A stretch of DNA of 63,814 nucleotides, counting the filler, from Dugesia japonica (taxonomy: Eukaryota), in NCBI GenBank assembly GCA_001938525.1. It is 5 parts of 5 records of this genome, joined end to end, with 100 filler letters (N's around TTAATTAATTAA, not from the genome) between each part and the next. Parts side by side here need not be neighbours in the genome. Positions count along the whole stretch, not along the records: positions 19,896 to 33,465 come from MQRL01604146.1; 4 more parts are not named here. One strand, written 5' to 3'. The notes beneath the pieces were generated by a model, which was not told where the DNA came from, searched no databases, and saw only the letters and a program-made list of their open reading frames with translations. Below, one piece after another: positions 4,071-44,869 of the stretch (position 1 is the stretch's first letter; each line of letters opens with the position of its first letter). Made by a program: the position numbers and the translations under genes.

Positions 4071-4232
4071 GCAATTGAACACAACTAATTTCTGTGCTCC
4101 TACTACGCTCCAGATCTCTGATATTTTGTATTATTCCGATATTGAACATTAGCAATTATTTTCCAAAATTTCTAATCTACTTATTTACTGCTTTATCAAA
4201 ATGTTTATCAATACTTGTTATTATAATCACAG

Positions 4233-4987: not shown

Positions 4988-5084
4988 TGAAGAGTCAGAA
5001 TAACTATGTTATACATTATGATGATTGTGTAGTTGATCAAATATATCTTATTGTTATCTTATCTTTACTTGCAGTTCTTGTTCA

Positions 5085-10523: not shown

Positions 10524-10841
10524 ATTGACATTAAAGATAACATTTGGTCCATTTAAAAATAATTTTTAACTCTCCTCGTCGCAACTTTAATATTTTAAGT
10601 TTAAACAATTCTCTACACATTTAAGATATAGTATCTGAATTAAAAATCGTATGAAAAATTATACATTAAATGAAAATTTTTAAAATTCAGTGTAATTTAT
10701 GTGTATTCTGTTTGTAAGTTTAGATTCAAATTAATTCAAAATATTAAATCAATTTGCAATTGATTTTTTAATGTAAAAATTTAATAACTTTGTTTTAATA
10801 TTCGGAAGAATAAGTTAATAAATTGCAGTAATTTTATTGAA

Positions 10842-11285
10842 ATGGAATTTAATGAATCTGAACAACAGCTTATTGAATTATTTAAGAAACGCGATAGTCT
10901 TGTTGTAAGATTTTTAATTTTAATTATAAAATAATTGTGTAGAATTCTTTAAAAAACCTAGAAAATCAAATTTACAATTTAGAAGGTAACTATTTGGAAG
11001 AAACATCTCAATATGGAAATATAATTAAAGGATGGGATAGGAATAATGTTAGATTGTCTTATAAAGTTACACCAAATAGTCATGGATATAGAAAATTTAA
11101 AGAATCTGATAGATTATTTTCCATGTCTTCAGCAACTTTTCAGAAATCTGTTTATTTCTTGTTATAAATAAATAAATATAACTATTTTTCAGATTGAAGA
11201 AAATGAAAATGTAGGAATCGAAGCTTATAAAGACCACAAATATTTACCTCATCACAAATTTGAAAAAAACTTACCAAGAAAATAA
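10842..11285 (+). CDS. EAF6: EAF6/MEAF6, NuA4/MOZ histone acetyltransferase subunit; 3 exons (10842-10904, 10943-11149, 11193-11285), about 120 aa
   Basis: The spliced translation contains [30 protein letters not shown] and [14 protein letters not shown], the Eaf6 signature. Phase-0 GT-AG introns of 38 and 43 bp. Missed by the ORF track. Confidence 0.9.
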
Positions 11286-11465
11286 TATAATAAATTATTA
11301 GTTTTAGTTGAATTTTCCTTTATTTATTTTCTCAACAATTTTTTAAATAATTCCATTTCTAAAAATTTTATAATTAACTTTATTATCACTTTACAGAACA
11401 TTTAATTTGTTACTGAGATTTTATTTTTCTGTGTAATTCAACCAAAAACAGTTAATTAACAATAA

Positions 11466-11793
11466 ATGGTCGTCCATAAATGAGGTCACACAATTTTGTT
11501 TTATTTTTGAACCTTTCCCTCGTCAATTCATCGTATAACGTTTGTATCCATCAATATGACTTCACAAAAAGTCTTTGTTATATTTTATCTTTGACCCAGG
11601 AGTGATAAGAAGATTAAAAGCACGACAAATAATATTTACACATGAAAATTTGCAATAATCCGATAAATAATATTTAATTTGGATTCTATAATATCGCTAT
11701 TAAGCGGAAAATAAATCTTATGTTGCCCTCTTCCTCATCGTCTTAATTCGTCACAAATATATTTAATCCCCAACGTCATTTATGGACAACCCT
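11466..11793. mobile_element. MITE / non-autonomous DNA transposon (~330 bp)
   Basis: Imperfect TIRs GGTCGTCCATAAATGAGGT (11468) and ACGTCATTTATGGACAACCC (11773-11792), with no coding capacity between. Confidence 0.7.
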
Positions 11794-13599
11794 TGTACTT
11801 AAACTAAATGCATTTTGACAAGCCCACCTCTTGCGGCGTTCAGGACAAATCTGAAATTAAGAGGCCCTTTCTAAAAATAAACATAAAAGATAAAAAATAG
11901 TGCTCAATTTGTTGAGTTGTTTATTGATATTGAATCGGATGCGAAAAAGATTTTCATAAAATTATTCCCAAATAAAAGTAAACCAAAAAATTAAATATAC
12001 TTCTAGAATACATGTGTTGGGTATGGTTCGTTGAGTTTAAAGCTACAGTATTATATGAATGATATTTTACCGAAAATTATAAGTATGGTATATAGTGTAG
12101 TTGCCTTATATAAATAAATGAAAAATATACCTTCTACTATAATTTATTTTTGGTATATAAAATAATACAGTGTTGAAAAGTCTTATACACCTTATAAGCT
12201 AAATTTATATCGATTTAGAGATGCCGCCCAGAGAGGTTGGATTCTAACCGATCAAAAATGTCTAAAAATTGAGTGAAATCAGTCAGTATTTTTACTGATT
12301 TCACCTGCATGCAAAATGCCCTTTAACTAATAAAAGCAGAACACCTTTACAAAATAAATAAAAAGTTTACTTTTAATAATTAAAATCAATAATTCCAAGT
12401 AATAAAATTTCTATTAATTCCGAGATATTTAGTAATTAAAATCCAAAATCGATAATCTAAAATAATTTTATATACAGCTTTGTACATTGAATAAATTTTA
12501 AATAATAACATAGAGTCAAAATATAATGAATGTTCCGTTATTGAAATAATAACCATCGAATGTTGATTCTGTATGGCCACTGTTCCATGTTGGATTTAAA
12601 TTTCGAACGTTAATCTTGACTGATGAAATGATAGAATATGTATGTTTGTATGTATTATTTATGCGTGTGATGTTTACAGAGATCCCAACACATGTTTAAA
12701 TAAAGATAGTTTTAATGTTAACCTGAATATATTTGCAGATAATGAATATATTCAGTCGATGTATTCAAGGAGACTCAAATTGTCCGGGAAAGCAGCCAAT
12801 AAAAGTACTTATAATTTCGATTTATTTCACCAGGGATTAGTTTTGCCTATTTAGATGATGATATTCTTACTAAACGTATAATTCTCTATCGAATATGTTG
12901 GGTGATGTTCAAACTTTTTATTTTTTCGAAAAATTACTGGTATGATTCGAATCCTGAGATGAACCACTTGATTTTTGAATTTTGCCAGCCTTTTGTAAGG
13001 GTTGACCATGTTAGGTGATTATATTCTTGATCATACCAAATCTTTTTGTCAAATTAATCTGTTGATGTTAAAATTTTTTAAAATAATGACAAAAACTAAA
13101 AAGTCATCGCTTTATATACTACAGTGAACAAGTGTGTATAAATGTATATGTATGTATGCTTGTGTGTGCATACGATTTCAACAAGGTAATGTAACAATGA
13201 GTCATGTACATGCTATACGAATGCAACATAACGGCAAGTAAAACAAAAGAAGTAATCCGATACATTCGACGTGTCTCATTTGCATAGCAATACATTAAGA
13301 CAAATGAATTAAGTGTTGAGAAAATAGTTTCTAAAAGTTTTCAAGTCGGTCCAGGAACATTTTACATCCCACGAACTACTTAATCACCTTAATTCAATTA
13401 ATTCACTCAATACAATCAATTTATTCAACTTAATAAATAACCTGAAAAATATAATGGCAAGTCTTAAAACCAAAATTGTAAAAGTCGAAATAAAATTTCA
13501 ATTAAAATAATAAGAGTGAAAATAACATTACAAAACTCGAAACGAAAATCGTACCACTCAAAAAAAGTATTGAAAACAAGTAAAATAAAATAATAAATT

Positions 13600-15400
13600 A
13601 TAACTCTGTGGGGTTGCTAGGCTTTTGATCTTATTTTAATCTTTTTATATTGTGATCTTTTACTTTTATCTCATCATCATAATCGAACTTTTCTCAAATA
13701 TCTTTTCTGTATGGTGGATGACACCTAGCAACCACAGAAATTTGTATTACTCCTTCTGGTAACACGATCCACCTTTTTCCCGGATCCAGTGGGATTACGC
13801 TGTATCCCGTCTTGGTGATTCAATTTTCATTTGGCTCGTAATTTTAAAATTTAAAACATCTTATTCAAGATTGCGTAAAGATAAACTCAAAACTCAATTT
13901 TCTGTGCACAACTCTTTATTTTACACAAAGTTTATCATTCGTCGAGCTCAATAATATCCTTTGACTTTTCTTTGATTCTATCGGATACTGTTGTTGATGC
14001 TTGCGTTAGTGTGCGCACTGTCGCAATCATTACGCTCTCCCGATTCGCATATGCTTTGAGGATGTCGGCCATTGCTCGACATGTTTGCGATAGTGCGAGA
14101 TCTCGCTCCTGAAGTTTGACATTCTTTGCTCGCAGCGTAGAATTCTTTTACTGCAATTCTGTGATCTCACTTTGCATCCTCCTTTGTAGGATCGCCCATT
14201 TCTTGCGGAAATCTTCCATAGAAATATCCGACAGCTTCTTGGTTTCCGTCACTAAAATATTAAAATATAAGAATCTGTAAATTTTATTGTCTTTATCATA
14301 TTATAATATTCGATTTATAGTTTAAACCTTCCATTTTATCAACATTACTAAACTCAATTTATAAATTTATTTTATCTATGGTTAATTTCATCAATTTACC
14401 GTAAATAAACACTCATTATTTTGAAAAGTCACATGTTCGAGAATAAATTATATTGACGTTTAACACATTTGTTAGACAGTAGTCACATAGGCGAGCTCCT
14501 TCTCTCGTTGTCCTGTTCGGTGATCAGCGCTGCAATTCGCTGCTCCTGTTGATCGACGCGGAGTTGTAACTGATTGACACGAACTAGCTAATCGGCATGT
14601 TGTTCCTCTCGTTGGAGTATGGCTACCTGAAATCGTCCTATCTCCCCATTCTTGGCACGCATTTGTCACCTCATAATCTCTTTCTACTTTTATATTCATT
14701 AACATTTCATAACAATAATCGTCTTTCATACACTTTAACATCTCTTAATGACAAACCATGTTTCCTTCTCAGAATCATTTGCATATTGTTCTCAAAATTA
14801 TTATATTCGGACGCTTCTCATAATCATCACCATATAAATTCTCATAATAATTGTTCACTTCTCATAATCATTATAATATAATTCTCATAATAATTGTTCA
14901 CTTCTCATAATCATCATCATATAATTCTCATAATAATTTTAATATTTAATGGTGGACGATCTCGTATAGGAATTAAACTCGGATCTCTGAGCATGGATGT
15001 CCATCGTTGCCGGCGTGGCCAATCAACGAGGAACACCGTCTCAGTCTTCCGATCGTATTTTAAATATAAATAAAATTACTTCGTGGTCTGTTGCTTGAAA
15101 TAAGAAAATACAACTTGTAATTTTGAACGATAAATTAACAAGAGTGAATTTGTATAATTTTTACGTGTGATGAGGATTTTTGTGTAAAATGTGTTTTCTT
15201 TTATACTATTTTTTATGTCAATTTTTGATAGGTATCGTAGGCGACTACTTAAATTTTTTAGAAAATCGCTGAATCGAGCAGTGCTCACTCGCCGATTCTT
15301 CTACGATATCCAAATTTGGACCTGCTTTTATTTTCATCTTGCTCTCATATTTTCTATTAGAAATTTTATTTTCATATGAATACCGGTGCTCAGGCGGCAT
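13600..15400 (-). other. Unassigned multi-exon coiled-coil module, copy A (decayed; probably transposon accessory region)
   Basis: GC-richer coding-like islands at about 14470-14660, 13934-14252 and 13670-13830 on the - strand. The 13934-14252 exon follows TTTTAG and precedes AATAAA. Protein similarity to copy B. Confidence 0.55.
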
Positions 15401-20680: not shown

Positions 20681-21445
20681 GTTTTTTTAATTTTCAAGTA
20701 ATTTCGTTGGAAATTTAAATTTTCTTTGTGGGATGATTTTTGAAAAAAAATTTTTTATTCTTATTTTTCTTTTCTCTATCTTTATTTTTAGGCGCGAAAA
20801 TTTCTTTTAAAATTTTTTAATAAGTTTATAAGTATAAATTATTAATTATTTTTATGCATTGTTTCAGTAACAGTCTTTTTTTCCTTCAATACCATTACAT
20901 TACTTCTGACATGTACAGTCCGACTGAACGAATCCATCAAGGTCTTTAGCATCCAATTCGAGTCCGTTCATAATTGAACTTATTGATTAGCTCGCGTAAT
21001 TCTAACTAGGCTAAGCTCGATTACAGTATGTAAATCTCCGGTAGCAGTGCTTCATCCGTTCACATTCGGACATAATTGAACACCACTACAATTGTTTAAA
21101 AAACAATCAGTCATCATCGTCAATTATTGACTAGACTCAGATCCGCAAAATGGTCAGGAAATTAATGGGGGAAAAACGACTTGACCCCAGTATGGTAGCT
21201 AGCTCCATGCGTAAGGCATAAGTTATTGGTAATTATAATGCCAATGTATATTAAAATAAAAATACTGGCGTCAAGTCGTTTTTTCCAATTACTCAGTATA
21301 TGTTTGAAAAAATGATAAAAATATAATATTCTTTGGGATTTTTAAGGTAAAAATTAAAAAATGACAAGAATAAAAAAATGAACGTGCTCAACATTTTTAT
21401 TAACCAGCTGAAAACTAGGGTTTAACCATTTTGTTTTTACTTAAA

Positions 21446-24400
21446 ATGTCTACTAATGAATTAACTTGTCCAAATAATCTTTGTAAAAAAGTTTTTAAAA
21501 ATAAATCAGGTCTAACATCTCATGTTAGATCGAAATGTTGTCTTTTAAACAGGGCAATGTTTACTTGTTCAAAATGTTAAAATGCTTTTAAATCTATGAG
21601 GGGATTAACAGAAAATTTGAATTCCACTAATTGTGGTAGTTCAGAAAACGTTCCGTTGTTTTGTGAAATTTGCCAAAAAAGTTTACAAGATAAAATCATG
21701 CAATAGCTCATTTTAATTCAAATAAGCATAAAGAAATGGTTAATAAAATATTATTTAATGAATTACCTGGAGAAGAAGTAGTTGATTTCAATCCAGAAAT
21801 TCGTGATATCTTCAAAATGTATCAAAAAAACTATGAAATTGAATATTTTAAAGAAAGTAAAGTTGAATTAACTAGAAATGTTGAATCCTTGGAAATACCA
21901 TTAAAATGATTAATGAATTTCAATCTGAAATCTTACAAATAATTACAAATATTTCAATTATGGTAAAAAGATTATTGTCTGAATGAATGTCAACTGTAAT
22001 TATAATAAGGAAGTAAATGGTGAAAATGTTGAAAAAATATTTAATTCGTATTCGAATAATAAACAATTTACATTAGTAAGTGAAATTAATGAAAGTGTCA
22101 TTGATATTTTAAATCAACTTTAAAGATTTATGGAAGATGAAGATAGAAATGAATCTGGATGGAATTTAAATTATAATGTAGATTTTAAAATTGAATAATC
22201 AAAATATCAATCTTTAGCTGGAGGGAAATCATCTTATCGTAAGTTATCTTTTTCTAAATCAGGAGTAATTAATATTGAAAATAAAGATGAAAAATTTTTT
22301 TATATTCAATTTTAGCACATAGATATGTATTTAAAGATCATCAAATTAGAGTAAAAAAATATATTCCTTATTTAGATGAGTTAAAAACAACTGGAATTAA
22401 ATTTCCAGTAAATATTGATGATGTAAAAAANNTTGAAAAGTTAAATGAATGGAAAATAAATGTATTTCTTGTAACTGAGTCTAAACAACTTGAACCTTTA
22501 TATATTTCACATTATGAAACTAAACCCAGAGCAGAGCAGAATAAATGTAATTTATTAGTTTATAAAAATCATTTTATTTTATGTTGAAATGTAGAAATAT
22601 GTTATACAATTAACAAAAATCAAAATCATTTGTGTATCAGATGTATGAATTGTTATGGAAGTAAAGACTTATTAATTAATCACCAAAAATTATGTATTAA
22701 TCATGAAATTAGAATTATAGTTTTTTCTAAACATTCTAGTTATTATTATCAAAATTAATATTACAAAAATAAAATATTTTTTGTAGTTTATGCTAATTTC
22801 GAAAGTTGGACTAATATAACAACCAAAAAACAAAAACCATTATCTCTTGGAATTTATATAACAAGTAAATATCAAAATTTAATTCAAAATGAATATAAAG
22901 AATTTTCAGGTGAAAGTATTCATGAAGATTTCTTTGAATTTTTAAATGAATTAAATAATAAATTAAAAGATATAAAAGAAAGTAAATTAAATCCTATTTA
23001 TATGGGTGAGAAACCAGAATTTGAGCAAGGAACTAAATGTAGATATTGTGATAAAGAGTTAACGAAAAATGAAAAACTAGTTTTGGATCATGATCACTTT
23101 AATGGGGAATTCAGAGGATATTCTCATTCAAATTGTAATTTAGAAGACAAATCAATAAAAGATTTATTTAATCCTTTTTATTTTCACAATGCTTCAGGTT
23201 ATGATAATCATTTATTTTTTAAAGAATTAATTAGTAAATATCCAGGTAAAGTTAAAAAGATAATTCCACATACTGATGAAGTTTATATTTCTTTTCAATA
23301 TGAAAGTATTAGATTTTTAGATTCAGCAAGAATGTGTACACAAACTTCAGTAGAGAAAATGGGTGAAACGTTAAATGAATCAGGAAAATATAATCATTTA
23401 AAAACATTTAATTTAAAACCAAAGAAAATACAATTTCTTTATGAATATGTTAAAGGAGAAAATATTAATCAAGTTATTGAATTATTAAAAAAAGAAATAG
23501 TTCCTGAGAAACAAGATTTTTATAATATATTAAGACAAAAACAAATAACTGAAAATGATTATAATGAATTTTTACTAGATTTTAGTAACTTTAATAATTT
23601 ATTTGAATATATGTTACATTATATGAAACTAGATGTAAATACTTTAGCTGATTACTTTGAAAATTTTAGAGAAAAATGTTGAAATAATTATCAAATCGAT
23701 CCAAGTTATTGTTATTCAGCTGCAGGATTAACTTGGAATGCAGGTATGAAATTTACTCAAGTAAAATTAAAATATGCACAAAAAGAAACTTATGATAGCT
23801 TTATTAAAATTGAAAGAGGAGTTAGGGGTGGATATTCTGGTGTTTGTGGTGAAAGACAAGTATTTTCAAATAATCAAAAATCTAATAATAGATTTAAAAG
23901 AACTAGACAATTAAATAAAGCACAAGTTGGAGATATATTATTTTCATTAATTAAAAATAAAATTCCACCAGTAAATTGGAAAGAAGAAACATTTTTAAAA
24001 TATTTAGATGAAAATTCTGTGTATGCTAGTTGTATGACAAAACCTTTACCAACAGGTGAAATCTATAATTTTAAGGATTTAATTTATACTAAATCAACTA
24101 AAGATATTAATTATGTTTATGAAGTTGATTTGGAATATCCAAAAGAAATTCATGAAAAGACTAAATACTTTCCTTTAGCACCAGATCCTTTAAATATTAC
24201 AAAAACTATGTTAGCACATTATCAATTATCATTTAACAAGAAATTAAGTAAGAAAAATACTAAATTAACATTGAATCAATTTGATAAACAAAATTATATT
24301 ATTTTAGGAAGTACTTTAGATTTATATNTNTCTNTAGGAATGAAAATTAAAAANATNCATNCNAAATATAAAATGCCNACAAAACCTTGGTTAAAAGATT

Positions 24401-25252
24401 ATATAGAATTTAATATCAATCAAAGAAATGAAGCTAAAAGAAATAACGATGTTTTTTGGTATGTATTCTTTAAATTATTAAATAATGCTTTTTATGGAAA
24501 AACATTAGAAATCATATATTAGGTGTAATGTTGAAATTGTAGAATCAGATAAAGATTATCAAAAATTCAGCAGTAAAATTAATTTTAAATCTAGTAAAAT
24601 ATTTACAGAGAAAGAAAATGGTGAAGCAGAATCAGCAGCCGTTCATCTTATCAAAACAAAATTAAAATATAATAAATTTCCTTACATAGAATTTACTATT
24701 TTTGAATATGCAAAAGAAGTTAAATATGGTTTTATTTATAATCAGATGGATAAAGAAATTCCAGGAAAGTATAAAATACATTATTCGTATACAGATTCAA
24801 TTTTTGTAGAAATAATTGGTCAAAAAAATTTAAATAAATTAACAAGTTTATTAGGTAATAATTTGTTTCAAATGAAAGATGAGAAACCAAATAATGAAAT
24901 AGCTAAATGTAATTTTATAAAAGCAAGGAGTTATATAATTGAAGACCGTAGTAAAAATATTGAAACTAAACATAAAGGTGTTTCTAAAACTAATAAAATA
25001 GGAATGGAACATTATGATAAAGTTTTAAGTAACCCTAAAGAAAATATTTATGGAATAAATTATAGTTTAAAATCGAAAAAACATGAAATAGAATTAGTGG
25101 AACAAAAGAAAATAGCGTTAACAGGTTATGGTGATAAAAGATTAATAGAAGAAAATGGAATAAGTACTTGGCCACATGTTAATAAGTACAAATGTTCAAA
25201 GTGTAATCAATGGCATTTAAGATTAGATAAATTATTAGGGAAAACTTGTTAA
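21446..25252 (+). pseudogene. pPolB: Protein-primed family B DNA polymerase with N-terminal zinc fingers and an HNH/endonuclease VII insert; multiple stops and frameshifts
   Basis: N-terminal CPNNLC..H and CEIC..H..H fingers; ESGWNL; VINIENKDEK; ExoI VYANFES; CRYC..LDHDHFNGEFRGYSHSNCNL; ExoII FHNASGYDNH; ExoIII LDVNTLADYFENFRE; RGVRGGYS; motif A YLDENSVY; motif B KLLNNAFYGK; motif C YSYTDS (first Asp lost); KHKGV; DKR. Confidence 0.95.
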
Positions 25253-27335: not shown

Positions 27336-27833
27336 TTATTTATTAAATGGGTTTTTATAAGGGTTTTCAAGTAATTCTTTAAAGGTTTCGTATAATTCAT
27401 TTATTATTTCTTCAAATGTTTTAAAAGAAAGTGAATATAAAAAATATAAACTCAAGACTCCACAAATACTTGTTCCAAAAGGTTAAACTTGAATTTCATT
27501 ATAAACATTTACATATTTTTCAATTTCTTTAAAAGGTTTTAATCCATAAGAATCAAAATAAAATCCAGAAGAAAAAGCAACCTAATGAGTTCCTTTTTGA
27601 TTGGAATTTTGATAATTAATAATTATTGGTGCCCGCGTGAACCACTTATCTTTATTTAAAACATAAGGGAAAGCGTCACGCGTGACGCTTAATTCACCTT
27701 TCATTAATACTTCTAGTTCTAAATTTAAAAAATCAGCAATAGAATACAAATTAAAATTAGTTTTTGTATTTATTCCAAATGTTTTTAAAAAGTCTAGGAC
27801 TCCATAAGATTTCTCTGAGTTTACGTAAGGCAT
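27336..27833 (-). pseudogene. Adenain-like cysteine protease (virion maturation protease)
   Basis: Reading through two stops gives IINYQNSNQKGTH*VAF..YFDSYG..YNEIQV*PFGTSICGVLSLYFL, with the His-Asp-Gln-Cys catalytic order. Confidence 0.9.
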
Positions 27834-28497
27834 TTTCTAATATGAACTAATAAAGAAATAGTTTGTCCATTAAAGTCTATAGGATTATTATTTTCATCTA
27901 TAATATTAAATTTTAAAGAATCAATACGTTTGGAATTTAATCTTAAATAAATTGGTGGATAAATTCTTTCTTTAAATTTAAAACCAAAACCAACAGAATT
28001 TACTGGAAAAGAATATAATAAATTCATTGGTATGGCTTGACCGTTGGTATTGATATAATTACCTTTAACTAAATTAAAAGTTATATTTATCATATTAATA
28101 TTTAAAATATCAATTTTATTTTCAGAATAATATTTTCCAATTGAATACTGGTTAGGTAAAAACCGAAAATTGTATGAAAAAAAGATTTGCAATCAAATTT
28201 AATTGTATTTTCTTTTATATCTAAATTACATTTTGTTGTTGATTGATCTGCTGTAACTTCAATTTTATACTTTGATAGTTTATTAGATATTTCTTTTATT
28301 TCATAAGCACCTGGTTCTATAGTTATTAATTTATCATTACAGTAGAAACTATTGTTTTTATTAATTACATTAAAAATAATATTATAACAACTAAAACATA
28401 ATAATCGCATTGCATATTCTGAATCTAATTCTATTGGAAATCTTAAATTAACTTTAAGATCAGACTCTTTACCAACAACTAAAAATTGATGAGACAT
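27821..28497 (-). pseudogene. Minor capsid protein (penton), one frameshift
   Basis: MSHQFLVVG..FPIELDSEY..IEPGAYEIKEI..IFGF joined to PIYLRLNSKRIDSLKFNIIDENNNPIDFNGQTISLLVHIRK, a typical Polinton penton pattern. Confidence 0.85.
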
Positions 28498-28522
28498 TTT
28501 ANNNNNNNNNNNNNNNNNNNNA

Positions 28523-29343
28523 TTTATTTTTATAAACATTATACTTTTTATTAGTAATTAATTCCTGTTTTAATAATTCTTTACAAACAGATTTAAAATC
28601 TTGTTTTAAATTATTATGTCAGGCTTTTACAGCTGAAATTAATAATGGTAATCTTTCAAACAAAGAAACTGGATCATGATTTAAACCTTCGCCTATAATT
28701 GGAATTTCTTTTTCAATTATATTTTCAATAGGTTTTTTTTCTTCAATTACTTTTTTAAGTTTATGTATTTTAGTAGTTCGCTCTTGTTTTTTAACTTTTT
28801 TAGGATCTTTTTTTCCAAGTAATGAATCACGATATCTAGAATTAGATGGAAATGTAATCTTTAATTTATTTAAATAAATATCAAATGCTTCTAAATCATT
28901 ACTTTCATTTCCCAAAATTAAATTCATTACTTCTTTAGAATATGGTATTACTTCTTCTTTAGATAAAAATTATTTCTTTCCATCTTCTTCAAATAAATAT
29001 AATTCTTTATTAGGATAACGTCTCTTTAGAAAGTTTTTATTATCAATATTTTCTATTTCAAATGTTGGTGTAATTGTTTTAGATAAATTATCACTATTTA
29101 AATTATTTTTTGGAAAGAATAGAATTATTTTTTTAAAGGGGTTTGTAGGTTTATCATCATTCAAATGAGTTTGTAGATATTTTACCTTAACTTTCAACTG
29201 CTTTAATTATATTGAATAGTTAAATCAGTTTGTAAAGTTCTTGCTTCAATTACATTCCCAGTAAATAAATTATCATAATTATCTTGAGCTTTAATTAATT
29301 CTTTTAAAAGTTTTATTCTTTCTATTATTTGTTCACTATCCAT
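28523..29343 (-). pseudogene. Conserved uncharacterised Maverick protein (C-terminal DP-x-x-L-x-x-RL-x-LL motif)
   Basis: GEGLNHDPVSLFERLPLLISAVKA*HNNL resembles the GxG..DPNELVERLRLLxASxxAGN tail seen in invertebrate Polintons. Broken into ORFs 28619-28927 and 28970-29197. Confidence 0.6.
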
Positions 29344-29344
29344 T

Positions 29345-29869
29345 TTATTTAGGATTTTCATAATGATTTTTAAAAGGTTTTAAATATAAACCATCACTTT
29401 TTATTTCAACTTGTATCCCATTTTTAAAATTTTTAGTTATAATTTTCAACTCTGAATTATCTAAACTATTTTTTAAATATTTATGAATCGCAGATCCTTG
29501 ATATGGTTTTAAATAAAGTCCTGAACCATCTTTTTCTAAAGCTTTTTTCTGTAATTCTACTAATTCAATTTCTTTTTGCTTTTTAATTTTTTGCAGAGCT
29601 TGTGCTTGAGCAGATCTTAAATTACTAACAGTTGATGCTATTCCAGCTGTAGAAGCTAAACCAGCAATTATACCAGGAATTGCAGCTAGAAAAGCAAATC
29701 CACCACTTTTCGTTTGAGCTTCGCGACCTTCGTGTTCTTTAACCATTTTCTTTTTTATTTCTTCTTTAACTTTTTTTCCAATCCAATAGTTTTTTCCATT
29801 AATTTTTACAGATTTGCTTTTTTTTGAATTTATCAAATCAATTAATTCTTGTTCTGTTATGGAAGTCAT
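29345..29869 (-). CDS. Putative virion core / membrane-active precursor protein (pX-like), intact, 174 aa
   Basis: Basic N-terminus, then SGG|FAFLAAIPGIIAGLASTAGIASTV amphipathic segment, coiled coil, and two GLYLKP(Y/F) repeats. Confidence 0.7.
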   Translation of the reverse strand: MTSITEQELIDLINSKKSKSVKINGKNYWIGKKVKEEIKKKMVKEHEGREAQTKSGGFAFLAAIPGIIAGLASTAGIASTVSNLRSAQAQALQKIKKQKEIELVELQKKALEKDGSGLYLKPYQGSAIHKYLKNSLDNSELKIITKNFKNGIQVEIKSDGLYLKPFKNHYENPK

Positions 29870-29874
29870 TTTAT

Positions 29875-30670
29875 TTACTTATATTTTCAGTCTTCAAACA
29901 ACTTATCAATTAAAACTTCAGCTTCTCTATCTAAATAATAATAATTATACTTTGTTTTTCAGTGTAAATTAACTTCATAATCATATTCCATTTTACTGGA
30001 AAATATGTTACTAAATAAATCATAATAAACATTATTTTATCAGTTTTGTTTAATTTGAAAAATATAAAACAATTGGAATTATTTCTAATAAAGTTTTTGT
30101 CTAAATGATAATAAGTTTGTGAATTATAAATTACATTACAATTAACATGTCTACCTCTAGTAAAATAAATTTTTTGTACTTCTTGATTTTTTTCATTAAC
30201 AACATCATCAAAAACTATTAAATTCTTTTTATCCTTAGATAATTTATCACAAGGAATAATTTCATTTGGTTTATTACTTAAAATTACATTTATAGGATAA
30301 GGACTTTTTTCAAATTTTCTTTTTATGGGACCTTTTGGGATTGAATATTTTTTAATATACAATTGAATTACTTCTAATGGAAATATTAAAGAATCAGGAA
30401 TTATATTTTGATATTCAAAAATAAAAATAATATCTTCTTTTGTTAATCCATTTTCGAAACCATGATAAAGTAATTATAATTCAAATTGATTTATTGTAGT
30501 AGAATAAATTATTAAAGTTAATAATCTAAAAACTTGGGAGTTCATAACATTTTCATTAATAAAACATTTTCACCCGATCCAGAAGAACCAATTATTAATA
30601 ATCTAAAATTAGATGGAAAGAGTTTATTATTAAAAATATTTTTATTTTTATTCCATATGAGCTGCGTCAT
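29875..30670 (-). pseudogene. A32/FtsK-type genome packaging ATPase
   Basis: Degenerate Walker A LIIGSSGSGEN, Walker B LIVFDDV, FTRGRHVNCNVIYNSQTYY and IRNNSN; frameshifted. Confidence 0.9.
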
Positions 30671-30687
30671 TTTTATTAAATAAAAAA

Positions 30688-31023
30688 TTAATATTTATTA
30701 CCTTTTTCTTTTATGTAATCATTAGTTAATTTACTAACACTCATATTTAATAAAGCTAAATTTGGCATACCCATGTTTATAAAATTCATGTTATTGTAAA
30801 ATTGAATTTCATCTATTTGTTCTTTTGACATGTATTCAGAAGTATCAGTAGTTAACCACTTCAGAAATGTTTTAGGTTTTTTGTCTTCTTTTTCTTCTTT
30901 TAGCTCTTCTTTTTCTTCTTTTTCAATATTAATTTCTTGTAGTTCTTTCTGGTCACAAGCGTTATTAAGTTCCTTCTGGTCATTATTTTCTTTTGATTTT
31001 TTAGAATTTTGTGTATTTCCCAT
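30688..31023 (-). CDS. Maverick ORF (111 aa), charged, with an MGN N-terminus
   Basis: Intact ORF with TAAAAATG start, MGNTQNSKKSK, and an E/K-rich middle. Confidence 0.6.
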   Translation of the reverse strand: MGNTQNSKKSKENNDQKELNNACDQKELQEINIEKEEKEELKEEKEDKKPKTFLKWLTTDTSEYMSKEQIDEIQFYNNMNFINMGMPNLALLNMSVSKLTNDYIKEKGNKY

Positions 31024-31881: not shown

Positions 31882-33172
31882 TTATAAAACCGTTTTCTGT
31901 AATTCATTATCATAAAATCTACCTAGAATCTTTTTGTTTTCTAAATCAGTAATTCCATAAGTAAAAGGTTTCGTTTTATATACTTTTGTTATTGTAAATA
32001 TTTCATTTGTCCATTTAGCTGTAAAACCTTTTTCAAATTTGTATTTATATTTAAAGATTCTAACTCTGTCTCCAATTTTAAACTTTTGTTTAAAGGATAT
32101 TGAATCATTTTTATGGTTGTGATCTTTGATTATCTCTTTTATGCTTTCAGAATTTTCTCTAGCTTCTTTTGGAGTTGTTTTTATACTAGAATGAATTGTA
32201 TTATTATAATCATTTACAATCTTTTGTAATAAATTATTATCATATTTCTGGTTACCTATTAAAGTAAAATGTTTAAATAATTCATTTTTAAATGTTTAAT
32301 TAAATCTTTCTATGACTACCTTCGTTTTCAGTTGAATATAAATTAATTTCATTTTCCTTACAAAAAGATTAAAATATTTTATTATAAATTTCACTTCCTT
32401 TATCAACCCATAAATTATTTGGAATTCTATTATTGTCTTCAATTATATTTTCAAATGCATTTGTTATTGCTTGGCCTGTTTTATTAGTACATATTTCTAC
32501 AAATGCAAATCTAGAATATAAATCGATAACTGTTAGTATTATTTTCTTATTTGGCATAAAAATTAAATCTGCAGACCAAGTTTCATCAATTTCTTTTATT
32601 ATTACTTTTAGAAAATGTTTTGGTTTTCTATATTCTTTATGTAATTCTTTGGCACGAAGTTCATTTGCTAATATTTCTTTATTTGAACTTTCACCAGATC
32701 CCAACATAATTTTACCTTTCATTGCTAATTTTACTAAAATTCTTTGTATTTTTTCTGAAATACTAGGATTAGGAATATTATTTAAATCATGAATTAAATT
32801 AACATCAGCTAAATGTCTATCTCTAATATTTTCAGATTTATAAGATAGATCATGTTTTAAAGCTGCTTCATCTACTCTATTAATTGGTTCTTCTCCAGGT
32901 TTTGGAATATTATTTTTGTCTAATCTTAAATCTAATCTTGTTCCTGGGCCTGTATAATTATGTTTAAATAAATGTCTTTCACCTAGATACTTTTTCCAAG
33001 TAAATGGTTTTAAAATTGTTGAAGTAAAAATTTAGAAGATTGAAGATCACCTCCCATTTGAGCTACGCGATCACCACCCAATTTTATTTTACATATTTTG
33101 AAATGTCTAGCTTTATTTTTTCTAAGTAATATTTTATTGCAATATTCACAAACACTTTTATTTTTTATCCAT
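31882..33172 (-). pseudogene. Zinc finger - parvovirus-type phospholipase A2 - retroviral-like (rve) integrase fusion gene
   Basis: CEYC..RHFKIC finger and GGD repeats, then after a frameshift HNYTGPGT..PINRVDEAALKHDLSY..RHLAD (PLA2 Ca-loop, HD dyad). The same frame continues without a stop through MKGKIMLGSG to ELHK..WSADL..LTVIDLYSRF..WVDKGSE, then frameshifts to IERFN..YNNTIHSSIKTTP..FKIGDRVRI..FEKGFTAKWTNEIF..GRFYDNELQKT*. Confidence 0.88.
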
Positions 33173-33213: not shown

Positions 33214-33465
33214 CTAAACATAACTTTCTCCTCGTTTATTTTCAATCATTAAAATTTTACTATTTGATAATTTCATTTCAATATGTTTTTCTTCTAAAAT
33301 ACACCAACATAAACTATCTTTAAAATCAGTATCTTTAGTTATATGTAAAGTTATATTTACTGTATTAATATTTAATTTATCATCTTGGGAACTAACATCA
33401 AAACAAAAGATTGGGTATAAATTATCAAACTCTTGTAAAGATAATTGTGGTTCTGTTAAAAAGTC
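33214..33465 (-). CDS. Major capsid protein (double jelly-roll), C-terminal 83 aa only
   Basis: Open frame DFLTEPQLSLQEFDNLYPIFCFDVSSQDDKLNINTVNITLHI..WCILEEKHIEM matches the Polinton MCP C-terminal P-I-F-x-F-D-V-S-x-Q pattern. The rest is lost at the spacer. Confidence 0.75.
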   Translation of the reverse strand, partial: DFLTEPQLSLQEFDNLYPIFCFDVSSQDDKLNINTVNITLHITKDTDFKDSLCWCILEEKHIEMKLSNSKILMIENKRGESYV

Positions 33466-33565: not shown

Positions 33566-34150
33566 CTTGACGTTTTCTTTGAAGTGAAAATTAGTCTAAA
33601 TTTATTATCATCAAAATATTTCATGAGAGAGCATTTTAGGGATTTAGATCCTTCCGAGAATGGTAGTTTTATAGTTATTTTTTCTTGATTATTTTTAATG
33701 TTTTCTTCTTGGTCATTATTTGATTTTGAGCACAGTTTGTTTAGAGTACTTTTTATATTATTGTAAATCATTTTTTGATTATATCCATTAGCTCGAAGAA
33801 TACTATCTAATTTATTAAGACCATCATCATCAATCTCAAAGCTTGATGATATACATCACACTCGATGGACCAAGACTTTTATTAATTCATTCTTATATCG
33901 ATCATCTCAAAAAACTTTAGCAGTGATATAAAGTCCTATGTCTGTCGATTTTTTATAAATTGAAGTATTATAGTTGCAACCCTGTTTACAAACAAGAACA
34001 TCTAAGAATGGTTTTATTGGATTAATTACGTAACAGGTTTATTGGCCAGTGTATAAACAATTTCCGTCTTATTTTACCGCAGTAACTGATGATGGACATA
34101 GATTTGTCCGAAACATGTATTACAAATAAATATTTTAAAAAATTGCGTTT
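33566..34150 (-). mobile_element. Penelope-like retroelement: RT C-terminal/thumb fragment (-) joined to an inverted pseudo-LTR (+)
   Basis: The - strand gives PFLDVLV..TSIYKKSTDIGLY..LIKVLVHR..NGY..ITIKLPF. The + strand 34020-34150 has a hammerhead core, AATAAA and a (TA)n end. Confidence 0.8.
34082..34123 (+). ncRNA. Minimal type I hammerhead ribozyme
   Basis: GTAA-CTGATGA-T-GGACA-tagatt-TGTCC-GAAA-CATG-TA-TTAC: intact CUGAUGA and GAAA cores, 5-bp stem II, palindromic ACATGT stem III, GUA cleavage triplet, 4-bp stem I. Confidence 0.8.
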
Positions 34151-37244: not shown

Positions 37245-37489
37245 CNNNNNNNNNNNNNNNNNNNNNNNNNNNNNNNNNNNNNNNNNNNNNNNNNNNNNNN
37301 NNNNNNNNNNNNNNNNNNNNNNNNNNAAAAAAAACTATTTATTATTTTAGTATTTATAAAAAAACTAAAAGTGTTAAATTTGATCAAATATAAACAAAAT
37401 CCTTAGGATTAAAAGAATCGCATTATACTCGAATACATATTGGTGATGAACAACTACAATATGAAAGTAACAAGAAACCTAGAATATTA

Positions 37490-38430
37490 AAGTGTTATAA
37501 TGAAATGTTCATCAATTGTAGTATTGTTGAACCTATTGGTGTAAGGGATGTTAATGTTCCTTTATAAAAAAGCAGTATGAATTGAAAAACATGAGACTGA
37601 TGAAGTAGTTCATATAATTGTTGATAATCCAATGTATTTGCCTATTTATTCATCATATATAAACAATATAGAAATTAATATACGTGATGATAGTGGACAA
37701 CTAATAAATTTTGCTGAAGACTCTAAAACACATTTAACGTTACATTTTAGAAAAATTAATAATAAATCCTGATAATGTATCATTTTATAGTACTAGTCAA
37801 GCAGGTGGAGAATTACCTTGCTTTCTTGGAAGATAGTATAGATCTGGTTGGCTACGAACAATAGGTAGATTTTCTTTACCTATTTTTAGACTTATTGGTT
37901 CTTCGAGAAATATAAACTCAAGACTTTACAAACGATAATTATGGTACAACATATATGCAAAATATAGTAACAAAATGTGGGATATTTGGATAATAATATG
38001 AATTGTGGAATAACACTTCAAGATTTTAAGAATAATTATCCTTTCTTTACATTTGTTCTTGCTCAAGATTTTGATATAAATCAGAGTCAATTACCTCAAC
38101 AAGGACATTTGAGATTGGATATGAAGTTTGCCAAAGCTTTAATAAGATCGAAATATGTTATAATTTATGGAGTATTCGAAAAATAAATTCAGATTAATAC
38201 CAACGGAACAGTATTAGTGTAAACAATGCTATGTATTCTTGAAACAATGGCAGTAAAGTAAGAGTTATTGTTTAATTTATTGTTTAATTTATTAGTTATA
38301 TTCAGATTGAACGGAGTACATCAAAATTATTTGTATCACCATATTTCAGTAAACAATGCTTTGATCGTCAATACTCATGCAACGAATCTATATGGAGAAC
38401 ATTAGATAGCAATTTACAATAAAATTCGAT
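37490..38430 (+). mobile_element. Second Maverick/Polinton lineage: internally deleted remnants of penton, pX-like, major capsid and protease genes
   Basis: Penton FINCSIVEP..NPMYLPI..IEINIRDDSGQLINF..LTLHFRK (37490-37770); YSTSQAGGELPCFLG (about 37785); MCP C-terminus YPFFTFVLAQDFD..GHLRLDMKFAKAL..VIIYGVFE (37930-38222); protease LIVNTHATNLYGEH*IAIY (about 38360-38420). Confidence 0.85.
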
Positions 38431-39169: not shown

Positions 39170-40735
39170 TCACAAACCTTATATAGCACGGTTGTTTTGT
39201 AAATAATAAAGGATAACTGCAAATAATACACTTATAAACACTGTACACTCAAAAACCATATACATTCATAAAAATATTTACTTAAAAGCTTTTATACAGG
39301 CCTATAAGGTATTTATACAGTAATTTTAAGTAAAATATATGAAAATATATGAAACTCATAAAACCTAAACACTTAAACACCCTATACAAACATAAAACCT
39401 ACATACTCATAAACCCTATAGATTAATAAAAATATAGACTATAAAGGTACAGCAATTTTAAGATATATACATGTAAATGTCCCACAGTCATAAATCCTAT
39501 ACACGCATAAACACTATACATTCATAAAAATATTTACTTATATAGGTTTATAAGTTATTAAGTAATTATAAGTTATATATATGTCAATGTTTCATATTCA
39601 TAAACCACATACACTCATAAACGCTATATACTCCTAAATCCTATGAACTCATAAATCCTATACACCATAAACCTTATACATTCTTAAAATATTTACTTAT
39701 ATAGGCTAATAAGTTATTTATATAGTAATTTTATGTTATATATATATGTAAAGTTTCCACACTCATAAACCCTATACACTCCTAGACCCTATGTACTCAA
39801 ATAAAACCATATACAATAATAAACATATTTACATATAAGTTTTTATATAGACTCATAATGTATTTGTACAGTAATTTTAAGTTATATATAAATGAAAATG
39901 TTCCACACTTATAAACCCTATAAACTCCTATATCCTATATACTCGAAAACCCTATAGATGTATAAAACATATTTACGTATAAATTATTTATACATAAAAA
40001 TGTTCTACACTAATAAACACTAGACTATCATAAATACTATACACTCATAAACTCTATATACTCAAAAATCCCTATACACTTATTAACTCTATACACTCAA
40101 AAGAACTCCTTACAATCATAAAAATATTTACTTAGAAGTTTTCATTTAGACTTATAATGTATTTTACAGTAATTTTAAGTTATATATTTGAAAATGTTCC
40201 ACACTCATTTATCCTATACACGCAAAAACCTTATACATTCATAAAAATATTTACTTATATAGGCTTATAAGTTATTTATGCAGTAATTTTAAGTTATAAA
40301 TATGAATATGTTCCACATAACCATAAACCTCTCAAAACCCTGTAAAACCATAAACCTTATATACTCATAAATCCTATAGATTTATAAAAATAAACTCTTT
40401 ATATTCATAATCACTATATCCTAATAAACACTATATATTCATAAAAATATGTACTTATATAGAGTATATAAAGTAATTTTAAGTTATTTATTTGAAAATT
40501 TTCCACACTTCTAAACCGTATACACTCAATTTCTATACATAAAAATATTTACTCATAAGTTTTTATACGGGCTTATTAGGTATTTTTAAGTAATTTTAAG
40601 TTTTATATGAAAATGTATCACACTCGTAAACACTTCAAACTCAAAAGCCCTATACAATCCTAAACCTTATATATTTATAAGCCCTATAGAATAATAAAAA
40701 TATAGACTTATAGGTTTTTATACAGCAACTTCAAG

Positions 40736-40766
<31 letters not shown>

Positions 40767-40950
40767 TGTTCCACACTCTCAAGCCCTATACACTCCTAAA
40801 CCCTTTATACTCATCAATCCTATACCCTCATAAATCCTATTCACACATAAACTTTACAGATTCATAAAAATATTTACTTATTAGTTATTTATACAGTAAT
40901 TTTAAGTTATACATATATGAATCTTGTCCTCACTCATAAACTCTGTAAAC
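39170..40950. repeat. Higher-order minisatellite built on a ~17-bp unit (ATAAACCCTATACACTC) plus AGTAATTTTAAGTTATA blocks
   Basis: Directly visible. A related array in reverse orientation lies at 56712-57130. Confidence 0.85.
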
Positions 40951-42019
40951 TCTATAGCTAGTGAGCTACTATGTATCTACTTACAATGCTGATAAATAAA
41001 CTTGTATTTCAAATTGTTTTTTATTAATTGCTTACTTCATTATTTACTGTTTGTTATTATCTTCTACCCGAGGAAACTTTTATATCAATTTACCCTGGAA
41101 GCATCTAATATTAAATTTACCCAAGGAAGTATCTAATATTAATATTTTTAGTGGGAATTAAGGGCTTTTAAATCCCTTAAACGTATACTTACACTGTGCG
41201 TACTTGTTATTCTTTTCAATTTATCTTTTACACTTACTTTTTGGCGATTTTACGGAATGGTAAAGACTTATCAAACTCTTGATAAGTCCAAAATTTTGCG
41301 TCGAATAATGTGCAAGATGATAACATTTATTTCAGTGGGGATACGGTTTCAGTGATTTTTAATCATGATATTCTCGATTGATACCAGATTCGATAAATTT
41401 TTAATACTTTTATTTTTTCGAAAAACTTTTTTCTTGTTAGAAATGATCCTAAGGTCATTTTGAGTCAATTGGTGCAAATATAACCAAGCGATTACGTAAA
41501 AAACTGTATGAAAATTATGACATACTTAATTCAATTACTTAGACAAATGGTCCAAGATTACATAATTTTATCGTCTCTTAAAAAGCCTGAAATTTTTAAA
41601 ATCCCATTGCGTCAGCGTGGGAGATGATTCCATGCGCCACTATCTGTTTACTCCTTTAATTTATTATATGTTACGAATAGTTTAATTTTAATTTGAAAAT
41701 TATTTTACTTTTTACTCATTTTTACTTTAGGTTTACGCTTTACTGGATCTGATTGTAATTGTAATACTACATCTTTATAATTCAGATTTTTTTATTTTCA
41801 AATAAAACAGTTAATTTTTTATTTCTTAATTGCACTTTAAAAATAATTAAAATTGTGAAAGATGAATTCCTTATACTTATTTGTACTGCCGCACCTATCG
41901 TTAATTAATATCAGATAAATATAATTCAATTAGATACATGGAATCATTGTACTGATACTCAGTTATTGAAATTAGTGAGTTGCAAAAAATTGTATAAATG
42001 AATATGTAAATAAATTTAC

Positions 42020-43669
42020 ATTTAATTTGAGTAAAATAATCGAAAAAATTTTTTCGTTTTAAAGTTAAAGAACTATCACTGAACGCTATTCTCACATGCC
42101 TAACTACTTCTGATAATTTCCCTTCAATGTTATATCCTCCTCTTCTGATTTACGTGCAGGTCTAGAAGCTATGGTATATAAAAATATACCTAAATAAGCT
42201 AACACAGTGCGAAAACTTGTTTTGGAATATAGCAATGTTAGAAATTAAATAATAAGTGAATTAGCTGAAAAAAAGATTAGTAGTCAATTTGTAGATGAAA
42301 GATTTTCTTTATCTTTTGATGAATGGACATCTCTACGAAATCGACACTATCTAATCTATCAAGACAAAATTCTAATTTTTGGAGATTAGGTTTGGCAAGG
42401 ATATACCATTGATAGTGGTCCGATTCATGCAAGGAATAAAACCGAAGTTTATATTGGTCCACTAATAAATAATGTATGAAAAATCATATCAATGTTTAGA
42501 AAGTCATCGACAAAGAATGATATATTAAAACAATATATCAAAAACGAATTTTGCAAGGATGTTGCTTTATTAAAAGACTGCAAGACTAGGTGGGGCAGTT
42601 TTCTATTAAGGCTAGAACGTTTTTATTTCCTAACAGATTGCATCAAAAAGACTTTAATTGATACAAAAAATAAAGACGAGTTACTAGATTTATCTCATGA
42701 TAAAAATCAAATGTTATTTGATATAATTAATGCGCTTGTGCCAATAAAAACAACTGTTGAAGCACTCTACTGGCAATATAGCAATCTGTTTACAGCTGAT
42801 ATTGTCTTTAATTCTATGCTAAATAAGCTTATAGATGCAAACAGTGCTATAAGTAAAAAATTATATGCATCTCTCAGACTTCGAATGGAAGAACGCCACA
42901 CAGATTTTAGGGGTTTACTTCAATACTTACATAATGCTAAAAGCAGCGTCTCGGGAATTGATTTTGTTACAGTTCCCTCTTCAATAAAATGCTGTAGGAG
43001 CAACCAGACGCTTCAAATCCCACTGCATTACGAACGTCTAATGGAAGTTTCAATTAAAATTGATTCAAAATTTAATTCAATGATTGAATCAGATTGTACA
43101 TAGAGACCATTAAGTTTAGCAGAAGAACTAGATAAAGCTATTAAAGAGGGATATGTACCAATGTAGCCTGTTTAATTTGAAACACTGTCATCAAAAATTC
43201 AGAGAGAAATGACTCTTTATGAGAATGGAGGAAGACGNGGTGATGATCTGGAAAGAACATATTTCTATCTAATGATAATAAAGCCAACCAGTGTCAAGCC
43301 AGAACGATCCTTTTCTTCAGCTACTAAAAATATGAGGCCTTTTAAATGTTAAAACCTTGAACGCATTATGTTTTTTAAAAGGTCATCTTCAGAAATAAAG
43401 GAAATAAAAAATTTTTTGTCAAATTTCATCATTTATTGTTTTTTATTTTTTTTATGGTGAAATAAAAATTGTTTTAATAAAATATTGTAATCAAATGAAT
43501 TTTTAATAGACTTTGGGGAATTATTATTCTATTTTAAATATGATACCGTTTAAGTGGAATTCATTTAAATTAAATTTCTAAGCCCGAGACTAAACCCGAG
43601 ATCCCGGGATTTGAAAAATAGAATCGCAACATACCGGGTTTGAAAATATGATGCGCTATTGCAATCTCT
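42020..43669 (+). mobile_element. hAT transposon (transposase pseudogene plus 3' TIR), lacking its BED finger in this orientation
   Basis: SFDEWTS (catalytic Asp), DCKTRWGS, IKPTSVKPERSFSSA (dimerisation domain), CCCGGG subterminal motifs, and terminus ATTGCAATCTCTA ending at 43669. Confidence 0.88.
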
Positions 43670-43855
43670 ACTTCCCACTTTAATTTTATGCACCGAGAAA
43701 AAATGCCTATGAAGGCCCTTCACGGAACCTCCAGCAATTCTCCAAATTTTCTGACAGTCTGAATATTTACATTTATTTGTCTGTCCATCTTCCCCCATTA
43801 AAAAGTGTTGCCAAATATATGAAGTACCCTTTGATAAATATTCTTTGTAAGCCAT
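43670..43855 (-). pseudogene. hAT transposase N-terminal BED zinc finger
   Basis: SYIWQHF..KCKYSDCQK..GGSVKGLHRHFFSVH (W-x-x-F, C-x4-C, H-x4-H). Confidence 0.85.
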
Positions 43856-44869
43856 GGGGTTAAAATTAATTTTAAAAAACCTAAAATTTTTAAGAGTAAC
43901 ATTAAAAATACAGAATAATTTTAATAATTTTTAGTTTAATGGTTGGAATTTAAAACAAAAAATAAGTAATTGATACAGACATTTTATACATGAGATAATT
44001 TCTACTAGTTAATTTATATAATTTACAACAAATTTAGATTTGAATTATTAATTCCTGACTTATTCTTCTAAAAACTTAAAAACACTTAAATATATATTAT
44101 GCTGTTAATTTAATTGTAATCATAATATTAATTGAAGAGTTTTTGTATGCAGCTATTATAATTGTACACAGAATTGTACCGTAATCTTTAAAGTAAATTA
44201 TTTTGGTTTAATATACTCTCTGTACAATAAAATATTTAGCCAACGGATGATTTTTTGCCTTAAAGTTAATGCTCAAGCATTATTTTATAAAACATTTTAT
44301 CGCATGCTGTTTTTTTAATCTTAATAGTTTTTTATGTACTTGTTGGATTTAGGTGGTTTGTGGCTATCGGAAGAGGCAAGATGAAGGAGGAAAAGATGAC
44401 TTAATTTTATGANTTTTTTGATTAATTTGATTGGTTAATTTTTGTAAGTAGTATATTAGGGTTAAAAATATTTTTCCTTGGGGGGGGAAAATATTTTGTT
44501 GAAAAAGTAATTAATTAATTGACTTAAGATTTAAATGAATTTTGTCTGTAACGTATGGGTGATGTAAAGATTTTTTGAAAAATTATGTTCTTTTAATAAA
44601 AATGATGTTTTATTAAGAAAATAGATGTATGTTTGGGCAGTCTTGATATGTTCCGTGCAGTTTAAAATTCCCAAGCACGTTTCGCTGTGTTGTTGTCGTG
44701 TTGAATGCCTAATAAAATAATTAAGAAAAACTATTTGCTCTAAGAAACATTTATTATTTATGAAAAAACCTTATTATTTTAGTATTTATTAAAACCTTAG
44801 TAATTTACTATTTATACAAAAAATTAATAAAAAAAAAGAACAATTATCCAGTAAAACATTTTTTCTTAG

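Follow-up and report, generated by a model that had tools for sequence, protein, structure and literature searches.

In Alpha adintoviruses, the described layout joins phospholipase A2 (PLA2) to pX in a protein termed PLA2X, and the integrase, which has a chromodomain and an N-terminal domain of its own, comes from a separate gene (Starrett 2021; accessible text of PMC8502044). A C-terminal chromodomain on the integrase is also part of the adintovirus definition in the accessible text of Buck 2024 (PMC11071296), where -1 frameshifts are proposed for the penton and for hexon-adenain, not for the integrase. Endosomal escape by PLA2 is established for parvoviruses, according to the accessible text of PMC8502044. 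For mavirus, the accessible text of Born 2018 (PMC6048507) reports a protease that cleaves GG↓X and GY↓G while sparing some GXG sites, as well as virions that contain the integrase MV02 and the cleaved hydrolase MV13.

We analyzed a window of 63,814 nucleotides from the planarian Dugesia japonica (assembly GCA_001938525.1; five parts joined end to end, filler included), which is 25% GC, animal-like in its genomic character, and interrupted by many N gaps. From ~21.4 to 33.5 kb, the window contains a decayed Polinton/adintovirus of the Alpha type, with PolB on the plus strand and, on the minus strand, a capsid remnant, a gene in which PLA2 is fused to the integrase, and A32 ATPase, pX-like, core, penton-like, and adenain-like genes (Table 1). 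The N-terminal region of PolB consists of short pieces. No flanking inverted pair that could represent terminal inverted repeats was found in the window, where the element is truncated and carries N gaps, and the phage collection yielded no match. The order of the capsid and PLA2 genes is the same in L002, a related locus (MCP and then PLA2). Pfam gave no match for the penton-like gene and recognized neither the protease of the window nor that of ORF P0123; the L018 ORF on which the adenain-like label relies has itself a weak Peptidase_C5 match. The pX-like ORF had one homolog (168 aa, also devoid of PLA2) when lengths of 95 to 305 aa were searched, and it weakly matched the Adeno_PX part of another protein, P0150. 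Two hallmarks of the published systems are missing: the integrase lacks, here and in its whole clade, the C-terminal chromodomain of the Buck 2024 definition, and PLA2 does not share one ORF with a C-terminal pX-like domain, the pX-like ORF being separate at 29345-29869. This copy is a dead element and matters only as a pointer to its family.

Other parts of the window contain further remnants and repeats. Decayed remnants of a second Polinton-type element lie at 37346-38216 (plus strand), in pieces that match ORFs of L011, L015, L016, and L009; one piece resembles a hexon C terminus, and Pfam returned no match in this region. Past an N gap, where the rest of the capsid gene would be expected, positions 33566-34038 (minus strand) hold non-Polinton sequence that resembles the tail of a Penelope-type reverse transcriptase and for which Pfam and similarity searches gave no match. 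A BED zinc finger (Pfam, E 0.005) was found within 42480-43930, a region that we take to hold hAT-like transposase remnants. Tandem or degenerate repeat arrays with 22-nt, 15-nt, and longer units are located at 710-1826, 4978-6081, 39228-40972, 56312-57089, and 59880-61050.

We then analyzed the fusion gene. The initial annotation described one uninterrupted minus-strand frame leading from PLA2 into the integrase, and our analysis confirmed it: the frame is open over 220 codons (33031..32372), ends at a TAA stop (32371-32369), and contains all the PLA2 and integrase motifs that had been quoted. Pfam assigned aa 20-101 to PF08398 (PLA2; E 4.5e-9, which passes the curated cutoff) and aa 150-218 to PF00665 (rve; E 3.5e-7), the latter with 30.8 bits, just under the cutoff of 32.6 because the frame stops. 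The only ATG-started ORF of this frame begins at 32722, close to the end of PLA2, which agrees with the remark that the ORF track starts at an internal Met. The integrase is broken, a point absent from the initial annotation: the stop comes after the second of the catalytic Asp residues, a different frame holds the Glu motif (32442-32299), and an additional stop follows it at 32298-32296. Both out-of-frame ends of the gene match P0002, an intact relative of 463 aa that likewise lacks a chromodomain. The piece 33172-33013, which holds the finger and GG-D sites noted upstream across a frameshift, aligns with the N terminus of P0002 (50% over 40 aa, E 2e-7); the C-terminal piece, which ends at 31882, aligns with its other end.

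Table 1. Features of the decayed element and its fusion gene (positions along the window)
Feature	Position	Strand	Basis
Fragmented protein-primed PolB of the Alpha type, endonuclease VII insert included; 5' limit approximate	21440..25252	+	PF03175 E 2e-9 (2.2e-9); PF02945 E 1e-7
Adenain-like cysteine protease, two internal stops	27336..27836	-	35% to L018 ORF, E 2e-9
Minor capsid (penton)-like gene, two frames	27821..28538	-	tblastn with corresponding L001 ORF, E 2e-8; label from position
Fragmented second core-protein gene, conserved; Adintoc3/PZ-like by resemblance	28502..29379	-	tblastn with P0031, E 9e-5
pX-like core protein encoded on its own, with G-x-G-LYLKP repeats and a GG-F amphipathic segment	29345..29869	-	resembles C-terminal half of canonical PLA2X
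Fragmented A32/FtsK packaging ATPase	29931..30694	-	PF04665
Integrase C-terminal piece, without chromodomain	31882..32295	-	64% identity to P0002 aa 327-461
Middle integrase piece with catalytic Glu motif, different frame (broken)	32299..32442	-	
Short integrase head (ELHK helix), then the catalytic core with its first two Asp, up to a premature stop	32369..32671	-	rve; STLV intasome alignment
Junction motif K-x-x-L-G-x-G, candidate protease site	32693..32713	-	predicted helix end at first Gly, then low-confidence stretch
Parvovirus-VP1u-type PLA2 with intact calcium loop (Y-x-G-x-G), HD dyad (HD-x-x-Y), and second Asp	32693..33001	-	PF08398; rice PLA2 2wg7 alignment
N-terminal piece: Cys/His zinc-finger-like motif and two GG-D sites, frame differs from PLA2 (broken)	33013..33172	-	P0002 match
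Double-jelly-roll major capsid gene, C-terminal remnant, directly upstream of fusion gene	33214..33465	-	PF21738 E 0.007, weak

An AlphaFold model of the fusion frame (19 sequences; pLDDT 83, pTM 0.50) showed two domains connected by a low-confidence hinge, with a predicted helix ending at Gly111 and pLDDT values below 50 at aa 112-117. Compared with retroviral integrases, the model aligned best with the STLV intasome (Z 9.6, rmsd 2.1, 78 residues), and its alignment with rice PLA2 2wg7 had a middling Z score (Z 7.0, rmsd 3.6, 93 residues). Foldseek on the PDB returned nothing at E ≤ 0.001, and the rows that it did return were integrases only. The PLA2 part used as a query for a PDB sequence search gave only nonsignificant capsid matches (E 0.44), which did not reach the junction. 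The single-sequence fold of full-length P0002 was useless (pLDDT 33).

We looked into the distribution of the fusion among relatives and found that it is genuine, conserved, and common. Both Pfam domains were present in 18 of the 30 homologs longer than 385 aa, the others being 11 PLA2-only Lottia gene models and one integrase-only protein. The best 150 of 1,891 50%-cluster representatives comprised 53 with PLA2 and an integrase head, 90 with PLA2 only (many of these 90 being fragments or having diverged heads), and 7 with integrase only, and when a distant member was used as the query, the best 120 of 634 matches all carried both domains. Atlas clusters of 184, 111, and 72 members also carry both families, with scores below 0.9 that make them leads only. 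The closest relative, P0002 (61% identity), is an in-frame fusion. We placed the window in an integrase tree of 60 rows, which sampled 1 in 12 of the eligible distant-member matches and omitted L003, L010, and partial loci: it falls in a 20-row clade (support 100/98) in which the other 19 rows are all in-frame fusions without a chromodomain. Canonical integrases encoded on their own occur at 13 loci of the tree. The initial annotation had proposed that sister elements be compared for PLA2 and integrase in one frame, and this is the arrangement found throughout the clade of the window. Among the Lottia gigantea models, P0018-P0027 and P0030 consist of the PLA2 part followed by long unrelated tails, two of them retaining the first integrase residues; these models are probably spliced gene-model chimeras of multicopy elements.

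The catalytic residues of the integrase are largely kept in the 127 full-length fusions (D in 123, D in 118, and E in 121), and the canonical integrase N-terminal domain is missing from nearly all fusions. A chromodomain is present in 102 of the 127, mostly among the matches of the distant member; its absence, correctly noted for this copy and true of its clade, therefore marks this clade only and does not hold as a general feature of the fusion. In the PLA2 domain, HDxxY was found in 55/57 and 119/119 sequences (the latter from the chromodomain clade) and, together with the second Asp, is nearly invariant. The second Gly of the calcium loop is kept in 33/57 sequences and replaced in 119/119 of the chromodomain clade. 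Since 24/57 and 119/119 sequences have lost this Gly, PLA2 activity may not be universal.

PLA2 is not the only partner of the short-headed integrase, which we also found behind adenain (P0123), behind a core protein (P0031), and behind a zinc finger alone, P0123 and P0031 each being a single database ORF. P0123 has adenain fused in frame to an integrase with a chromodomain, and two sites in its linker fit the strict adenovirus rule. In P0150, pX, a zinc finger, and PLA2 form one string with glycine sites in between, and stand-alone zinc-finger–PLA2 proteins of the size of that of L002 make up Atlas clusters of 99–144 members. Four genomes in the accessible part of the Buck supplement, two of them listed from Hydra, have PLA2 closed by a stop codon, with the integrase starting at a Met of its own. 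The initial annotation had regarded such relatives as a sign that the fusion arose by decay; they occur in one sub-lineage, that of these four genomes, whereas the clade of the window is fused throughout. Because these four genomes have separate genes and 13 loci have stand-alone integrases, the fusion is not required for the lifestyle. Judging from the protein sequences, we infer that the PLA2 and integrase peptides of these genomes overlap in the -1 frame over a Lys-Asn pair, which would force an A-AAA-AAY heptamer.

Adenain cleaves at (M/I/L)xGG↓x and (M/I/L)xGx↓G. We examined the junction in two sets of sequences, set A (70 junctions, the query and two Lottia models among them) and set B (119 junctions). 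The PLA2 of the relatives closes with K-x-[K/R]-[L/M/F]-G-x-G, behind which come a linker and the short integrase head; the linker after the junction glycines ranges from -3 to 243 aa, and several fusions have none. G-x-G or GG is present at the junction in 61/70 and 119/119 cases, both being absent in 9/70, and the second junction Gly is found in 56/70 and 119/119, so the site, whose conservation the initial annotation had proposed to check, is conserved. The same 61/70 and 119/119 junctions show, as a motif only, the mavirus-type clan CE signature (GG↓X or GX↓G at a domain boundary). The proposed match of M-L-G-S↓G to the adenain rule is correct for this copy and fails in the relatives: M, I, or L occupies P4 in 7/70 and 1/119 junctions, and Lys or Arg does so in 49/70 and 114/119. 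As P4 is mostly Lys or Arg in the relatives, we consider the match incidental, and we rejected the strict adenovirus rule as evidence. The junction glycines may also be partly structural, since the same G-x-G motif closes the unfused PLA2 in every PLA2X examined and the first Gly sits at the end of a helix in the model.

A second glycine site lies on the other side of PLA2. GG was found 6-18 aa ahead of the domain in 43/65 sequences, compared to 4.6% of background windows (25 Lottia-type or chimeric models were excluded beforehand), with a variable P4 and with Asp directly after the GG in 34 of the 43. Putative core proteins contain modestly more GG/GxG sites than shuffled versions (7 versus 3.0 in the window, p 0.014; 20 versus 14.2 in L001, p 0.04; the count includes the PLA2 calcium loop), and no such enrichment was found in the other ORFs of the window and L001. 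By analogy with mavirus, cleavage by adenain at the PLA2–integrase junction is plausible. Three relatives, P0029, P0166, and P0169, have an insert of 214-243 aa between PLA2 and integrase, whose end, just before the integrase head, bears a second Gly-aromatic motif (G-x-G in 2/3).

The architecture of the fusion, its conservation, and the placement of its motifs are direct observations, and we propose the following function for it. An integrase devoid of the usual N-terminal domain would be made as the tail of a precursor with the order zinc finger, GG, PLA2, G-x-G, integrase, and this precursor would be packaged with the genome through its core-protein part. During maturation, the element's own adenain would cut the glycine sites flanking PLA2 with a relaxed, mavirus-like specificity rather than according to the adenovirus P4 rule. 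The freed PLA2 may then help the particle to breach the endosome, and the freed integrase, traveling on the genome to the nucleus, could integrate it without new gene expression. The fusion, which is in frame and would give a 1:1 ratio in the clade of the window, may thus serve mainly as a device for packaging and stoichiometry, as in Gag-Pol, rather than for timing integration. We consider it moderately probable that a virion-core precursor packages the integrase in this way and that adenain cleavage on either side of PLA2 releases both a membrane-lytic enzyme and an integrase bound to the genome.

Other explanations of the fusion have to be weighed against this one. The heavy decay of the element and the existence of relatives with separate genes might suggest that two genes became joined by accident in this copy. 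We rejected this explanation as hardly credible, because P0002 and 19/19 of the other rows of the clade are in-frame fusions. Alternatively, the fusion could stay uncut, with the glycines capping the PLA2 helix and PLA2 either replacing the integrase N-terminal domain or tethering the integrase to membranes or to the capsid. The predicted helix end at the first Gly, the presence of the motif in PLA2X, the misfit of P4 to the adenovirus rule, the fusions without any linker, and the near-general lack of the canonical N-terminal domain would all agree with such a role. A cap accounts for one Gly, however, and neither for the second one nor for the upstream GG-D, and linkers of up to 243 aa, together with integrases that have other partners or none, show that the integrase needs no adjoining PLA2; we therefore regard an uncut fusion as rather unlikely. 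The precursor could also be packaged and cut while PLA2 acts as a packaging handle only, its lipase activity being dispensable or lost, in which case entry and integration would not be linked. This would fit the calcium-loop substitution throughout the chromodomain clade and the promiscuous fusion of PLA2 to pX, adenain, and Adintoc3 in the accessible published annotations, but HDxxY and the second Asp are nearly invariant and the window copy retains the full Y-x-G-x-G loop, which makes a mere handle distinctly improbable.

Cleavage of a packaged precursor, our preferred reading, leaves room for more than one way of expressing the integrase. A single contig scan gave 29 loci on virus-like contigs in prokaryotic genome bins, which look like eukaryotic-virus contamination of these bins. 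PLA2 directly precedes the integrase in 5/29 loci, and in none of the five does the integrase share a frame with the end of PLA2. In four of these (L002, L006, L007, and L012), which occupy three places in the integrase tree, the integrase lies in the -1 frame without a Met before the first catalytic Asp, behind an in-register slippery heptamer located 1–3 codons past G-x-G (A-AAA-AAC twice, A-AAA-AAA once, and G-GGA-AAC in L006). This arrangement, found in 4/5 of the out-of-frame loci, is new, and it suggests a Gag-Pol-like expression of the integrase in some relatives, a claim based on five contigs that probably contaminate prokaryotic genome bins. No -1 slippery signal occurs at the junction in the window itself. 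The same arrangement could stem from slippage or assembly error in Lys-rich A-runs, or the integrase could have an independent start (through a non-AUG codon, through splicing, or at an AUG further upstream like that of the Hydra group, where the integrase has its own Met). We hold error or an independent start to be quite possible, if somewhat short of probable: A-runs make up three of the four heptamers, further breaks occur in L006 and L007, L001 shows a +1 shift and no in-register heptamer, hairpins in the loci other than L002 are not significant (z -1.1 to +0.3 in all four), and KN/GN occurs in 4/19 short PLA2 tails versus 4/55 related fusions serving as a like-for-like control (p 0.19). 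Against it, the break falls within the same 1–3 codons in 4/4 loci spread over the tree, an in-register heptamer is expected by chance in 2–7% of cases per locus and in less than 1% for the XXXAAAC type found in three loci, and the heptamer of L006 is no long run. In L002, moreover, the capsid and integrase ORFs are intact, a hairpin of 12 bp lies 5 nt downstream of the heptamer (z -3.7), and the tail motif before the stop is also found in two unrelated proteins. L001 itself (1-13637) is a near-intact Polinton virion module inside a "bacterium" bin, with an ORF that resembles a Penelope-like reverse transcriptase and has no Pfam match.

If the slippery signals of these few loci are functional, some lineages other than that of the window would use -1 ribosomal frameshifting to make much PLA2 and little PLA2-integrase. 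In retroviruses, the integrase ends a structural precursor, Gag-Pol, which is produced by a -1 frameshift or in in-frame forms and from which the viral protease releases it. We tentatively suggest that a widespread branch of animal double-stranded DNA Polintoviruses may have converged on this logic, an idea that we rate as possible and not yet as probable: an integrase devoid of N-terminal domain and start would be carried on a membrane-lytic core protein, at a 1:1 ratio or at a low ratio through a -1 frameshift, and freed by adenain inside the virion, with in-frame, frameshift, and separate-start states interconverting along the tree and the carriers (PLA2, protease, core proteins) being swapped.

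The initial annotation presented the fusion as its candidate for an under-described system. It is not unrecorded, as the accessible part of the Buck 2024 supplement (PMC11071296) labels Adinto6405 (BK066529, acoel worm dataset) and Adinto15303 (BK066759) "PLA2-Integrase," two labels among 59 PLA2 entries that also include PLA2X-Adenain and Adintoc3-PLA2X. The term "PLA2" never occurs in the main text of that paper, and the judgment stands insofar as we found no accessible text that discusses the fusion. Neither a PLA2–integrase fusion nor a frameshift into the integrase is described in the accessible portions of PMC8502044, PMC5803895, 10.64898/2026.07.28.741253, PMC3671162, PMC6048507, the PMC11071296 text, 10.64898/2026.10.13.758929, PMC11131425, PMC11161782, or 10.1101/2023.08.22.554363; subscription journals, Repbase, and further supplements may differ. 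Apparently, the fusion has been annotated before but not explained.

A conserved precursor of core protein and integrase would offer a concrete and testable route by which Polinton integrases reach incoming genomes, for which natural intact genes exist; among related viruses, only mavirus shows an integrase in the virion. Should the -1 frameshift be real, DNA viruses would tune the dose of their integrase as retroviruses do, and gene callers would report integrases that lack the first catalytic Asp, as in L002 and L012. Gene callers may also mislabel the fusion as a capsid protein, as seen in the accessible part of the Buck 2024 supplement.

Compared to known systems, the element of the window shares with Alpha adintoviruses and Polintons (Mavericks; Polintoviricetes) the PF03175 PolB, the rve integrase, the A32 ATPase, the parvovirus-type PLA2, and a pX-like segment, and it contains a weakly matched remnant of a double-jelly-roll capsid gene and an adenain-like gene. 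It departs from the described Alpha layout in that PLA2 is joined to an integrase with a short head, pX has its own gene, and the chromodomain is missing. The full protein of Adinto15303 is like that of the window, with the same junction, a short head, and no chromodomain. The PLA2 resembles that of parvovirus VP1u in its PF08398 domain and catalytic motifs, with densovirus matches in BFVD and the weak capsid matches in the PDB mentioned above, whereas the parvovirus enzyme is fused to a capsid protein. Mavirus, as described in the accessible text of PMC6048507, parallels our proposal by having an integrase and a hydrolase in the virion and a clan CE protease that cuts GG↓X and GX↓G; it differs in that MV02 and MV13 are separate gene products and in that the hydrolase is of the alpha/beta type, not a PLA2. 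Relative to Gag-Pol, the Polinton fusion belongs to a double-stranded DNA element, would depend on a cysteine protease acting in trans instead of an aspartic protease, and has neither a reverse transcriptase nor an HHCC domain. Its likeness to Gag-Pol is one of analogy, not of membership.
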